IMG/VR virus record: IMGVR_UViG_2548877011_000016
Reading direction: 5' to 3' (one strand)
Length of the DNA: 9,181 nucleotides
From: a virus
Taxonomy: Duplodnaviria > Heunggongvirae > Uroviricota > Caudoviricetes
Within the stretch, counting starts at the first letter, position 1. Each line of letters starts with the position of its first letter. This document shows, piece by piece, positions 969 to 2,832 of this stretch. Below the pieces are notes generated by a model. The model had not been told where the DNA came from and ran no database searches. It worked only from the letters and a program-made list of their open reading frames with translations. Made by a program: the position numbers and the translations under genes.

Positions 969-1895
969 TCAGCTTTTCGCCAGAACGGTGACGGCCTTAT
1001 CGAGTTTTTGCCATCCGCAATAGGTGATTGCCCTGAACGCTGTAGCGTCATTCTGGAAAAGGCTAACCGTCCCTGATTCGGTTTTTATTACCGCCTCATC
1101 AGTTGGGGTTATAACTGTGGCTTCAACGTTAATAATCAGCTTTTGAGCGTCTATCAGCATCATGCGATCCGCCTGTTCGCTCACAATTACCGGTATTCTC
1201 AAAAGCTCTATCTGCCAGAACTCAGCATCAGTAAGCTGTAAGGCGTTTTCTACGGGCAAGATTAGCGACGACGTGGCAAGCGTGTTACCGTTCGCTATGT
1301 GCTTTTTGAAAAGCTCTATGAAGTTTTCGGCCTCATCAGCACCATTAAGCACGCCCTCAGGGGATACGCCCGCCACCTCCTGGTCACTGGAAAGAAATTT
1401 TTTATCTATTTCTTTCACCGATTCCGATGTGATCAAGTCTCTGATCGCTGAATTGGTACCAGGGGTGCTAAATTTGATTAGCTCGTTATTCAGCATCACA
1501 ATAGCGCCAAGTTTGCACAGTTTTAGCGCACTTTCGTTTACTTCTCCCTCTTTGACAGGGATTTCTTCGGCTTCTTTAAGCCATTTACTACCCTTGCCTG
1601 ATATTGACTGCAATTTTGCGCCAAACGGAAGATTCAGCGCGCTGCTGATTAGCTTGCCTGGTACAGACTGCGAAAAAATATACTCGCCAAGCTCTCTTAC
1701 TATCGGCTCTGCCACCAGCGACGGCATATTATCCGTAGTCATTCCGGCAACAATGGATTTTTCAAGAAATTTCGATACTGCCGGATCATTTTTTTTCGTC
1801 ATTTCAATTGCGTCTGCATGGCTGAATTTACACGATGTAAGCACGCTGGCGGCGCGAACTGCCGACACGCCTTTCATGTTTTTAGAAATCATCAT
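969..1895 (-). CDS. HK97-fold major-capsid-like protein (308 aa, no delta domain)
   Basis: AGGAGG lies 6 nt upstream of tandem ATG codons at 1895 and 1892. The segment KLGAIVMLNNELIKFSTPGTNSAIRDLITSESVKEIDKKFLSSDQEVAGVSPEGVL and the C-terminal ...LFQNDATAFRAITYCGWQKLDKAVTVL match, by recall, the conserved core and C-terminal pattern of HK97-family major capsid proteins (compare HK97 gp5 ...MDDAPMLQSYINNRLMYGLALKEEGQLLNGDG... and ...ERLALAHYRPTAIIKG). Not verified by search. Confidence 0.55.
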   Translation of the reverse strand: MMISKNMKGVSAVRAASVLTSCKFSHADAIEMTKKNDPAVSKFLEKSIVAGMTTDNMPSLVAEPIVRELGEYIFSQSVPGKLISSALNLPFGAKLQSISGKGSKWLKEAEEIPVKEGEVNESALKLCKLGAIVMLNNELIKFSTPGTNSAIRDLITSESVKEIDKKFLSSDQEVAGVSPEGVLNGADEAENFIELFKKHIANGNTLATSSLILPVENALQLTDAEFWQIELLRIPVIVSEQADRMMLIDAQKLIINVEATVITPTDEAVIKTESGTVSLFQNDATAFRAITYCGWQKLDKAVTVLAKS

Positions 1896-2043
1896 CTTCT
1901 TCCTCCTGGTAACATGGGGTTAGGGTTTCGTGAAAATATGGCATCAGAACAGCGGCAGCCTGTAACCGTATTTCGGTTGGCTGCTGCTTGTCGTTCATGA
2001 TTTCCGTGAGTACATCAATAGGGTCTGTGATGTATTCGCTCAT
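1882..2043 (-). CDS. Small acidic protein (53 aa), not in the ORF track; overlaps the capsid-like gene start
   Basis: ATG at 2043 is preceded by GAGGT with an 8-nt spacer, directly after the TerS-like stop. Hand translation: MSEYITDPIDVLTEIMNDKQQPTEIRLQAAAVLMPYFHETLTPCYQEEEDDDF, stop TAA at 1882-1884. It overlaps the capsid-like ATG out of frame, an operon-style arrangement. Confidence 0.4.
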   Translation of the reverse strand: MSEYITDPIDVLTEIMNDKQQPTEIRLQAAAVLMPYFHETLTPCYQEEEDDDF

Positions 2044-2054
2044 AGTTCGCTACC

Positions 2055-2543
2055 TCAGTGTTTTAAGCCAGTTGGTGGCTTAGGGATGGGGAACCGATTT
2101 GAGGAGACATTAGCGGCATTGAGTTTTTTAACCTCTTTTTTCCCAATGCTGCCGATCTTGCGGTGGGTGAACTGGGCCAGCTTAAACGCGGCATCTAAAG
2201 CCAGTTTTGGATCTGTGTCCATGTTGTCAATCAGTATCCTGCCCATTGCTTTGATGGGGTCGGGTAGGCCGTTATCCATCATCTCAATGGTGTTAATTGA
2301 TGCCCGTTCCGGTGTAACTTTTTCGGTAACTTTCTTTGTAACTTTTTTCGGTTTTGTAACCTGAAAAGTTACATCAGAAGTTACAGCCTTAAGATACTTT
2401 TTCACCTCAGGATCATTGGATAGCTGCCAGCCTTTAACCCTTGCGGTCTTTTCGCTGTATCCCGCATGTATAGCGGCTTCCGTGGGATTTGCGCCCCTTG
2501 ATAACGCATCAGCAAACCGCTTTTTTTTGGTCGTTAATGCCAT
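2055..2543 (-). CDS. Phage small-terminase-like protein (TerS-like, possibly a packaging-redirecting protein), 162 aa
   Basis: ATG at 2543 is preceded by GAGG with an 8-nt spacer. N-terminus MALTTKKKRFADALSRGANPTEAAIHAGYSEKTARVKGWQLSNDPEVKKYL matches the small-terminase helix-turn-helix signature (LTxKQxxFxxEYxxxGNxTxAAIxAGYSxKTAxxxGxxLL). The track ORF 2055..2681 starts at an upstream GTG; that extension lacks an RBS and overlaps a GC-rich palindrome, so the ATG at 2543 is preferred. Confidence 0.65.
   Translation of the reverse strand: MALTTKKKRFADALSRGANPTEAAIHAGYSEKTARVKGWQLSNDPEVKKYLKAVTSDVTFQVTKPKKVTKKVTEKVTPERASINTIEMMDNGLPDPIKAMGRILIDNMDTDPKLALDAAFKLAQFTHRKIGSIGKKEVKKLNAANVSSNRFPIPKPPTGLKH
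2313..2387. repeat. Phased array of GTAAC/GTTAC pentamers with T-tract spacers inside the TerS-like gene (candidate pac or DNA-binding site)
   Basis: GTAAC at 2314, 2326, 2339 and 2356 and inverted GTTAC at 2368 and 2381 (plus strand), spaced 12-17 bp, each followed by a T-tract. In the protein this region encodes the KVT-repeat segment (TKPKKVTKKVTEKVT). Confidence 0.55.
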
Positions 2544-2566
2544 GCAAAAACCTCGTTTTGAGGGGG

Positions 2567-2590
2567 TGTAACTTTTCGTGTAACTTTTTT
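2567..2590. promoter_or_regulatory. Tandem TGTAACTTTT boxes in the leader upstream of the TerS-like gene
   Basis: TGTAACTTTTCG (2567-2578) and TGTAACTTTTTT (2579-2590), 12 bp apart, lie 24-47 nt upstream of the TerS-like start codon. They share the motif of the intragenic array. Confidence 0.45.
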
Positions 2591-2618
2591 GAAAAGCAAA
2601 ATTTTCTACGAATGAGAC

Positions 2619-2668
2619 GGGGGGCGGTGTCCAGGGCGATCGACTTTCCGGCCGGAACACTCCCCCCC
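2619..2668. repeat. Long GC-rich interrupted palindrome (GGGGGGCGGTGT ... ACACTCCCCCCC) enclosing CGATCG and CCGGCCGG
   Basis: Left arm 2619-2630 and right arm 2657-2668 are complementary at 11 of 12 positions; the 26-nt loop contains the palindromes CGATCG and CCGGCCGG. It sits between the stop of the small gene 2671..2832 and the TerS-like leader. No clean U-run follows on either strand. Confidence 0.4.
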
Positions 2669-2670
2669 TG

Positions 2671-2832
2671 TCATTGCTCACCGAGTAACGAGATCAGGCC
2701 TTCAACTTCATCACTCAGCTTGTTTATTCGTGTCTCAAGCTCTGCGATCTTTTCCATCAATGGCGCTATGGTGTCTCTTGTTTCCTCGCCAATGGCTTTA
2801 ATGATGCTTGCCTCGCGTTCTGTGATAGCCAT
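2671..2832 (-). CDS. Small predicted coiled-coil protein (53 aa), not in the ORF track
   Basis: ATG at 2832 is preceded by GAGG with an 8-nt spacer and sits 3 nt after the stop of gene 2836..3030. Hand translation: MAITEREASIIKAIGEETRDTIAPLMEKIAELETRINKLSDEVEGLISLLGEQ, stop TGA at 2671-2673. Charged heptad-like composition suggests a real protein. Confidence 0.45.
   Translation of the reverse strand: MAITEREASIIKAIGEETRDTIAPLMEKIAELETRINKLSDEVEGLISLLGEQ

Follow-up and report, generated by a model that had tools for sequence, protein, structure and literature searches.

Rpp, a packaging protein of phage-inducible chromosomal islands (PICIs), is 144-153 aa long, carries an N-terminal DNA-binding domain similar to that of the small terminase subunit (TerS) and forms a heterocomplex with the TerS of the helper phage (PMC6739421). 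In PaP3 TerS, the alpha4-alpha5 hairpin (residues 64-105) constitutes the oligomerization core of the ring (PMC7672466; review PMC9611059). Capsid homologues of PICIs have also been discussed (PMC6092414) and, in EcCICFT073, deleting the capsid or the decoration homologue left interference unrelieved. The helper-embedded PICIs (HE-PICIs) have late-gene targets that include the cognate of lambda A (PMC10111431). Here, we analyzed a satellite of Escherichia coli carried by a 9,181-nt stretch of viral DNA (IMG/VR record IMGVR_UViG_2548877011_000016; the whole stretch is called the window hereafter), and more specifically two 53-aa open reading frames (ORFs), ORF A and ORF B, which lie on either side of its terS gene. 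The other loci included in the comparisons are designated by L numbers.

ORF A resembles the oligomerization hairpin of TerS

Profile comparisons and structure prediction identify ORF A as a stand-alone paralogue of the oligomerization hairpin of TerS, without the DNA-binding domain and with an acidic tail. The features relevant to this comparison are the following:

1882-2043, minus strand: ORF A, 53 aa, acidic; start ATG 2043-2041, stop TAA 1884-1882 (RefSeq WP_000006073.1)
2053-2056, minus strand: Shine-Dalgarno core GAGG(T) of ORF A, 9 nt before its ATG and overlapping the terS stop TGA (2057-2055)
2055-2543, minus strand: terS, 162 aa, true start ATG 2543 (Pfam Terminase_2, E 1e-10; phrog_641, E 3e-44; same coordinates in the Prokaryotic Genome Annotation Pipeline, PGAP)
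969-1895, minus strand: capsid-protein homologue, 307/308 aa (Pfam Phage_capsid, E 1e-6; phrog_617 and phrog_10, major head protein)

The product of ORF A is MSEYITDPIDVLTEIMNDKQQPTEIRLQAAAVLMPYFHETLTPCYQEEEDDDF. When searched against PHROGs, it matches phrog_641, a TerS family, over profile positions 89-126 of 162 alone (E 8e-7); the other match is phrog_15261, a family of unknown function. A tblastn search of ORF A against 50,697 phage records returned matches almost solely to terS genes, and hhalign placed the small family onto TerS residues 88-137 (97.6% probability, E 4e-12). Profile methods are needed to reveal this link, because BLASTP of ORF A against the satellite's own TerS yielded no alignment. 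The AlphaFold2 model (mean pLDDT of 77.5, about 94 in the core) presents a helix at residues 8-17, a turn and a second helix at residues 23-41, which together form a hairpin, followed by a disordered acidic tail. The family profile also gave a weak match to PDB sequences, located within the hairpin of NV1 TerS (7JOQ residues 81-101). The hhalign alignment, the predicted hairpin and the weak NV1 match all indicate that ORF A possesses the central hairpin of TerS.

The other parts of TerS were not observed in ORF A. The TerS of the satellite is laid out as a helix-turn-helix (HTH) at the N-terminus, a linker of KVT repeats, a helical hairpin and a basic tail. ORF A presents no N-terminal HTH (no Terminase_2 match, and a model composed of two helices alone) and does not carry the basic C-terminal tail of this TerS clade (KKG..GKK...F..PPP), which is invariant in the TerS alignment. 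Its C-terminus instead reads CYQEEEDDDF, with a charge of -6 over the last 12 residues. The acidic character and EEEDDDF end that the original prediction ascribed to ORF A are thus genuine: its net charge is -11, relative to +6 over the 30 C-terminal residues of the satellite's TerS. ORF A cannot be a TerS by itself, since it is 53 aa long, has neither the HTH nor the conserved basic tail and ends in an acidic tail. Gene 1 of phage SPP1 also gives rise to an N-terminally truncated product without DNA-binding domain, G1P*, which would be a functional analogue of ORF A. The start of the capsid-like gene (ATG 1895 or 1892) overlaps ORF A by 14 or 11 nt and its AGGAGG (1907-1902) lies within ORF A. 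However, the acidic tail is kept in loci where the small gene does not overlap with the next gene, and it is therefore not an artefact of an overlapping Shine-Dalgarno sequence or ATG.

A family of stand-alone hairpin proteins linked to terS

An exhaustive profile search across 1.84 billion representatives yielded 34 significant matches. Among these, more than a dozen 50%-identity clusters are stand-alone proteins of 49-68 aa, most of them with an acidic tail, and the core of the family reads DPxDxLLxVMND...R.EAAxALMPYFH. The same search recovered full-length TerS-like proteins with the motif located internally; some HEAT-repeat-like proteins were regarded as motif look-alikes. ORF A shares the size, the core, the acidic tail and the position directly after terS of the stand-alone proteins.

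In every locus that we inspected, the small gene starts 0-12 nt after terS, and the gene that follows varies. A capsid homologue follows in the enterobacterial satellites (window lineage, L007, L062, L063 and L066), and terL, the gene of the large terminase subunit, in prophage or phage contigs (L033-L040 and L060). For instance, the complete HK97-like prophage L034 presents the order terS, small gene, terL, portal, ClpP protease and major capsid protein. The Pseudomonas satellites L015 and L024 present the order int, HTH, capsid homologue, 68-aa ORF, terS and small ORF, with no terL afterwards: in L024 unrelated genes come next, so that the island appears to end there, and in L015 the next ORF is insertion sequence-like. 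The original prediction had noted the place of ORF A between the TerS-like and capsid-like genes and referred to small proteins of satellites. Genes of this type are nevertheless not restricted to satellites, and they are tied to terS rather than to the capsid-like gene, as seen in the Pseudomonas satellites and the complete prophages. The two Pseudomonas elements (L024:2084-6153 and L015) are very compact, about 4 kb, with a capsid homologue of 438 aa (PF05065, E 5e-32); we saw no recognizable replication gene in them, where the Pfam scan covered part of the ORFs.

Satellite and phage pairs of Pseudomonas are orthologous, with 72-74% identity for TerS and 58-64% for the small protein. Between Pseudomonas and E. 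coli, the identity of the small protein is 38-59%, and its length and the character of its tail remain constant. The charges of the tabulated pairs are complementary: -5 to -14 overall for the small protein and +2 to +7 for the last 30 residues of TerS. By their sequences and gene order, the stand-alone TerS-hairpin proteins form what appears to be a widespread and previously undescribed family linked to terS. Likewise, terS and the small gene are best described as a two-gene cassette that is co-inherited in phages and satellites.

Conservation and coding capacity of ORF A and ORF B

ORF B lies on the other side of terS and is preceded by a third small gene:

2671-2832, minus strand: ORF B, 53 aa; start ATG 2832-2830, stop TGA 2673-2671 (RefSeq WP_001018604.1)
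2841-2844, minus strand: Shine-Dalgarno core GAGG of ORF B, 8 nt before its ATG
2836-3030, minus strand: p64, a 64-aa ORF with a GTG start directly upstream of ORF B; ribbon-helix-helix-like by eye

The original prediction had reported both 53-aa ORFs, and we confirmed their coordinates, strand and products by sequence and translation. Each is preceded by a GAGG, and the ribosome-binding sites described as strong amount to a 4-5 nt GAGG(T) core. The operon-style coupling is also real: ORF A starts 11 nt after the end of terS and overlaps the capsid gene by 14 nt, and ORF B starts 3 nt after the TAA (2838-2836) of p64 and is the last gene before a cos-like site. Both ORFs were indeed missing from the original ORF track, which used a 60-aa cut-off, but RefSeq annotates both as hypothetical proteins (L001: WP_000006073.1 for ORF A and WP_001018604.1 for ORF B). 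The idea that such genes are easily missed by automated annotation does not hold, since PGAP and other callers, including those of the metagenome collections, call both ORFs in every locus. The PGAP accessions are WP_000006073.1 or WP_000006076.1 (ORF A) and WP_001018603-605 (ORF B) in every complete genome inspected, and the exact sequences of ORF A and ORF B are each present on at least 1000 contigs. Databases name these ORFs 'hypothetical protein' or 'Gp80', and ORF B also 'antitermination protein NusG'. We rejected the NusG label: ORF B is a single 47-residue helix and gave no NusG or KOW match in Pfam or NCBIfam up to E 1. No model was found for either ORF in Pfam or NCBIfam, and we found no literature citing their protein accessions. 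These genes were therefore already annotated, and the new elements are the family identification of ORF A, the helper relation of ORF B and the anatomy of the cos site and its repeats.

Across about 30 E. coli-type loci, ORF A and ORF B keep their length, start and stop, with no indel and no internal stop. Conservation in homologous islands, the check that had been proposed, thus speaks for both genes: the frames are intact in all the relatives examined. Among close relatives, ORF A presents a ratio of nonsynonymous to synonymous substitution rates (omega) of 0.15-0.46, and the comparison with the most diverged of them (L007) gives dS = 0.62, dN = 0.14 and omega = 0.22. This omega is similar to those of terS (0.10) and of the capsid-like gene (0.14). 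Within the E. coli lineage, ORF B has 12 segregating sites, with 5 synonymous and 8 nonsynonymous changes, which are too few to judge selection, and the segment from ORF B to cos is unusually uniform relative to its flanks. More divergent homologues of ORF B (40-50% identity) were reached indirectly, via contigs found through distant relatives of ORF A: one in L062 (56 aa) and two in tandem in L063 (69 and 62 aa). They are likewise the last genes before a G-run or cos-like site and terS, each with its own purine-rich Shine-Dalgarno sequence. Relative to these homologues, ORF B shows a pN of 0.35-0.46 at a saturated pS of 0.74-0.83. Its C-terminus is invariant, V(E/D)GL(I/V)SLLGE (VEGLISLLGE in the window), and is kept via synonymous codons, including TCG, TCA and AGC for serine. 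This motif is not imposed by cos, because the stop of the L062 homologue is 52 nt away from the G-run.

Both ORFs are considered protein-coding because their frames are intact, the omega of ORF A is about 0.2 and ORF B is conserved at the protein level despite saturated synonymous divergence; these patterns of substitution indicate purifying selection on both. Alternatively, one or both ORFs could be functionless leftovers that remain open by chance: ORF A would be a degenerated copy of terS and ORF B a piece of a helper gene. In the case of ORF B, the DNA flanking cos, and not a protein, would be what is conserved. Both resemble fragments of larger phage genes, and the 5 synonymous versus 8 nonsynonymous changes of ORF B, with a nucleotide diversity as low as that of the cos region, would fit such an origin. 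We nevertheless consider this explanation very improbable: the comparative data, namely the omega of ORF A, its 38-59% identity between Pseudomonas and E. coli at an unchanged length and tail character, and the homologues of ORF B that keep frame, start, Shine-Dalgarno sequence and C-terminal motif through synonymous changes (at 52 nt from the G-run in L062), largely refute it.

ORF B resembles a portal-linked protein of the helper

ORF B is predicted by AlphaFold2 to form one continuous helix (residues 5-51; pLDDT 94.5), and a heptad pattern with hydrophobic residues spaced by 3-4 positions can be read from its sequence between I22 and L50. This long heptad-patterned helix agrees with the coiled-coil type originally predicted. 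ORF B gave no tblastn match in phages, and only relatives of 98-100% identity in metagenomes and IMG/VR. We therefore considered the family as a whole, and the profile and motif matches lead us to regard ORF B as a fragment-like relative of a portal-linked protein of the helper. A profile of five ORF B family members matched (hmmsearch, E 5e-5) the N-terminus of a helper-prophage protein that is encoded directly after the portal (L011:10050-11270 and L074:19240-19974) and begins with MNERELSIIRALGEEF. The hhalign comparison between the ORF B family and this protein gave a probability of 95.5% (E 1.5e-8) over 32 columns with 44% identity. Independently, the N-terminus of phrog_1289 was matched by ORF B of the window (E 0.005), L062 (E 0.007) and L063 (E 0.0006), and ORF B of the window weakly matches phrog_2271 from position 455 onward; both families are labelled portal protein. 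The helper N-terminal segment M-x-ERE-x-S-x-I-x-x-x-G-E-E is found in ORF B, including the initiator methionine. The tandem repeats of about 48 aa and the CBM_5_12-like C-terminal domain are present only in the L011 and L074 proteins and not in ORF B.

The helper gene after the portal (L011 and L074; portal of L004) encodes an N-terminal helix, one to four tandem repeats of about 48 aa and a CBM_5_12-like end. PGAP merges it with the portal gene as 'frameshifted', and PHROGs contains fused (phrog_2271, 859 aa) and separate (phrog_1289) versions. This protein may be encoded by a gene of its own or result from a frameshift fusion.

It was also considered that ORF B could partner the capsid homologue as a small helical protein of the internal-scaffold type or as a determinant of size, comparable in role to CpmB of SaPIs, the pathogenicity islands of Staphylococcus aureus. 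ORF B is a single long helix, it is conserved together with the capsid homologue in L062, L063 and the lineage of the window, and SaPIs are known to encode small helical proteins by which capsid size is redirected (PMC6092414 and PMC6739421). A weak similarity was also detected between ORF B and the N-terminal (delta) region of the HK97-type capsid proteins of L033, L034 and L036 (E 0.16-0.31). However, this similarity is not significant, whereas that to the N-terminus of the portal-linked protein is; cos, terS and ORF A separate ORF B from the capsid homologue; and no ORF B was detected in the Pseudomonas satellites that carry a capsid homologue. A scaffolding role thus appears quite unlikely, and the relation of ORF B to the portal-linked protein is retained here.

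The gene p64 has an omega of 0.08-0.16 and its L062 homologue (41% identity) is kept together with that of ORF B. We also thought of p64 and ORF B as a possible toxin-antitoxin pair but set this reading aside, given that ORF B forms a lone helix and accompanies the packaging genes. In L063 (L063:1-2065), the two tandem paralogues of ORF B come directly after a tape-measure-like ORF (PF10145, phrog_28), and cos, terS, the small ORF, the capsid homologue and a truncated terL follow.

A cos-like site and repeats next to terS

The stop of ORF B and the start of terS are 127 nt apart. This gap and the terS gene carry two further features:

2590-2670, minus strand: cos-like segment immediately following the stop of ORF B, with a G7...C6 imperfect inverted repeat
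2314-2586, minus strand: seven copies of AAGTTAC, spaced by 12 nt and forming three groups; candidate cosB-like sites for the binding of TerS

The cos-like segment (80 nt) was found by blastn and alignment to share about 80% identity with the region between HNH and terS in lambdoid helper-type prophages, whose genes are ordered HNH, terS, terL, 645-aa protease-capsid fusion and portal. Two of the AAGTTAC repeats are upstream of terS (2568-2586) and the five others (2314-2344, direct; 2366-2384, inverted) are in the part of terS that codes for the linker and give rise to its KVT/KKVT peptide repeats. This motif is strongly overrepresented, with seven matches relative to 0.74 expected (0/200 shuffles reach seven). 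We also found AAAGTTACACC upstream of terS in L060 and L063. Helper prophages carry GTTAAC repeats at the corresponding place downstream of the shared cos segment, and the difference between AAGTTAC and GTTAAC probably reflects a swap of TerS-binding sites. The TerS of the satellite is 51-53% identical to that of an O157 helper-type prophage and is best conserved in the C-terminal half (hairpin and tail). A cos site accompanied by its own terS would correspond to the classic arrangement of a satellite that supplies the DNA-recognition subunit to the TerL of the helper.

The comparison with related satellites (L002, L008-L014 and L025-L032) revealed a sharp mosaic boundary at 2671-3030. Indeed, p64 presents a dS of 0.4-0.6 between satellites that hardly differ in ORF B, cos and terS (dS of at most 0.13), and the divergence of ORF A and of the capsid-like gene is intermediate across the same satellites. 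This mosaic pattern suggests a recombinational exchange of the cos-terS cassette.

Possible roles of ORF A and ORF B in packaging

A modulation of packaging or capsid assembly, as originally proposed for small proteins in these positions, is compatible with the homologies of ORF A (TerS core) and ORF B (helper portal-linked protein). We tentatively favor, as a close call, a reading in which ORF A partners the cognate TerS and ORF B uses a module borrowed from the helper to act at the portal or head. ORF A would bind the cognate TerS through its hairpin, either by co-assembling into the TerS ring or by docking on it, and its acidic tail would complement the basic tail of TerS. It would thereby belong to the DNA-recognition half of the terminase as an accessory subunit and could help the satellite TerS, which would recognize the AAGTTAC repeats beside a helper-like cos cleavage site, to bring the helper TerL to the satellite DNA. 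The satellite would have copied a two-gene cassette because the terS-ORF A pair works as a unit. ORF B, a helix of roughly seven heptads whose N-terminal third would be helper-derived, might oligomerize like the portal-linked protein of the helper, or it might occupy the docking site of this protein at the portal or head during the assembly of satellite particles.

Several points weigh against this scenario. All its steps are drawn from homology and synteny, and the synteny with terS is equally expected from simple co-inheritance. The Foldseek search with the ORF A model was not significant (best E 2.4), with PaP3 TerS ranked first and PaP3 and NV1 TerS at the top of this non-significant list. 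The similarity of ORF B to the helper protein spans just about 32 residues of helical sequence. In four related prophage copies (L037-L040, e.g., L037:5953-6147) the small protein presents a longer and basic tail (...FHVSKEKSRAFRRHPNPS), which may represent a frameshifted copy. Finally, a stand-alone homologue of ORF A was found within 3 kb in 0/72 IMG/VR loci of E. coli helper-type prophages, in which terS and terL overlap or are 3 nt apart, relative to 8/8 satellite loci of the same set. Because the E. coli helpers work without a homologue, the TerS of this family is not intrinsically dependent on ORF A, and this leaves room for an anti-helper role in E. coli. We searched the complete E. coli genomes for a cognate helper of the L060 type (terS, small gene, terL) and found just terL matches of about 69% without the small ORF.

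In such an anti-helper role, ORF A, as a TerS mimic reduced to the hairpin, would be a dominant-negative interference factor that mixes into or caps the oligomers of the helper TerS, or masks its basic tail with the acidic one. This would disable DNA recognition by the helper and free its TerL for the satellite TerS, with an outcome analogous to that of SaPI Ppi. The distribution in E. coli is as expected under this scenario, with a homologue in all the satellites of this lineage and none in the helper-type prophages. In addition, the hairpin is the oligomerization element of TerS, and satellites are known to target the helper terminase with small proteins such as Ppi, Rpp (PMC6739421) and Gpi. 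We consider it unlikely, however, since members of this family are also encoded between terS and terL of complete prophages, for which acting against a helper would make no sense, and since the hairpin of ORF A shares only about 17% identity with the aligned part of the helper TerS, with nothing to suggest that it is tuned to the helper.

The partnership of ORF A with its cognate TerS can also be extended to a broader proposal, which we view as somewhat unlikely. The ORF A family would represent an unrecognized third component of terminase DNA recognition in a clade of HK97-like phages and their satellites: a TerS-core subunit devoid of a DNA-binding domain would co-assemble with TerS, setting the number or spacing of the HTHs or showing an acidic tail to TerL. 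In E. coli satellites, ORF A and ORF B would additionally constitute a two-decoy strategy, in which isolated oligomerization modules of the helper re-route packaging. Since complete prophages also encode the family, it may point to an accessory subunit of the terminase that has not been considered in structural work on TerS.

Gene content and distribution of the satellite

By its gene content, the island is a Gram-negative PICI-type phage satellite of Shiga-toxin-producing E. coli (STEC). It spans about 8 kb (about 8.3 kb in the PGAP annotation of an identical island at tRNA-Pro) and all its genes are on the minus strand. It combines an integrase, an AlpA-type regulator, a replication protein, a small size, packaging and capsid homologues and an incomplete virion set. 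Pfam identified the integrase, the AAA_25 RepA-like helicase, Terminase_2 and Phage_capsid, and the HTH_17/AlpA match was weak and below threshold (E about 0.015). The genes outside of the late module are:

7940-9181, minus strand: integrase
7237-7443, minus strand: AlpA-like HTH protein
5005-5304, minus strand: DUF4222 protein
3608-5008, minus strand: RepA/AAA_25 helicase
between the helicase gene and the 64-aa ORF, minus strand: 81-aa ORF

The late module follows in the order p64, ORF B, cos-like site, terS, ORF A and capsid homologue. The capsid homologue is 22.5% identical to the C-terminal half of the 645-aa protease-capsid fusion of the helper. Searches by alignment gave no match to it in genome_contigs and close relatives alone in IMG/VR, and word-indexed protein searches with ORF A, ORF B and the capsid homologue returned near-identical matches alone.

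E. coli 2013C-3277 contains a 99.7% identical copy of the element at tRNA-Pro, between yejM and yejO; in O157, the element sits between clpS and cspD. A 2.2 kb module is present at 95-100% identity in 220 of the 5426 complete E. coli genomes, and the carriers among the matches listed are mostly O111, O157, O26 and O103 STEC. At the other end of the window, positions 10-498 (plus strand) represent chromosomal flank and correspond to the C-terminal portion of yejO, an autotransporter gene that is a pseudogene in the corresponding genome; the right end of the satellite falls between about 500 and 968. Rfam detected a C4 antisense RNA (73.8 bits) and isrK (66 bits), adjacent on the minus strand at 6217-6304 and 6326-6402, in a region annotated by RefSeq as a frameshifted Icd-like gene in the identical island. 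No RNA family was found by Rfam across 1882-2832. A hairpin resembling an intrinsic terminator, AGCCGGAGCAATCCGGCT followed by a T-run, is located at 3125-3142 (minus strand) between the 81-aa and 64-aa ORFs, and no sigma-70-like promoter was found across 800-3700, where 4.3 were expected.

These elements thus sit in STEC (O111, O26, O103 and O157), where helper-type lambdoid prophages are abundant. The split in packaging specificity, with a shared cos cleavage site and different repeats, bears on gene transfer in these pathogens.

Comparison with known systems

Relatives with the same p64-ORF B-terS-ORF A-capsid module are inserted into terL of lambdoid prophages, as described for HE-PICIs (PMC10111431); the copy in the window differs by its position at tRNA-Pro, between yejM and yejO, and by its integrase. 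In L074 (NZ_CP027459.1 3699554-3727044), as well as in L011 and L012, a related satellite splits terL into a 5' piece of 276 nt and a 3' piece of 1404 nt, the latter beginning directly beyond the Walker A motif. In divergent satellites, a terL truncated in this way is found after the capsid-like gene (L062:3760-4260 and L063:3986-5341). We rejected the possibility of an assembly chimera, since the arrangement is present in a complete genome, and it is not new, having already been published for HE-PICIs.

The capsid homologue and the small helical proteins encoded in one operon also recall Ccm of SaPIbov5 and CpmB of SaPIs. No sign of small capsids was seen for the present satellite. The portal-linked protein of the helper is much larger than ORF B (245-407 aa, with tandem repeats of about 48 aa and a CBM_5_12-like domain), whereas ORF B consists of a helix with its own VEGLISLLGE end.

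ORF A shares with TerS proteins (Terminase_2/phrog_641; PaP3 6W7T and NV1 7JOQ) the hairpin core and a place in the terminase operon, directly after terS, but it is a 53-aa protein with an acidic tail and possesses neither the HTH nor the basic GKK...F...PPP tail. Like SaPI Ppi and PICI Rpp, which bind the helper TerS (PMC6739421), ORF A is a small protein of a packaging module that presumably acts at the small-terminase step. It has neither the size of Rpp nor its TerS-like DNA-binding domain (53 aa, no HTH). Moreover, Rpp replaces a satellite TerS whereas this satellite has its own, which sets ORF A apart from Rpp by description, and the ORF A family, unlike Ppi and Rpp, is also found in autonomous prophages. 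In PLE satellites, Gpi, GpsA and GpsB likewise re-target the helper motor through small satellite proteins and mimicry of the packaging site (bioRxiv 10.1101/2024.04.22.590561), but Gpi inhibits TerL and the helper, ICP1, is of the pac type. Ppi, Rpp and Gpi/Gps each differ in mechanism, and a TerS paralogue reduced to its hairpin and retained beside terS from Pseudomonas to E. coli would, if confirmed, represent a further solution.

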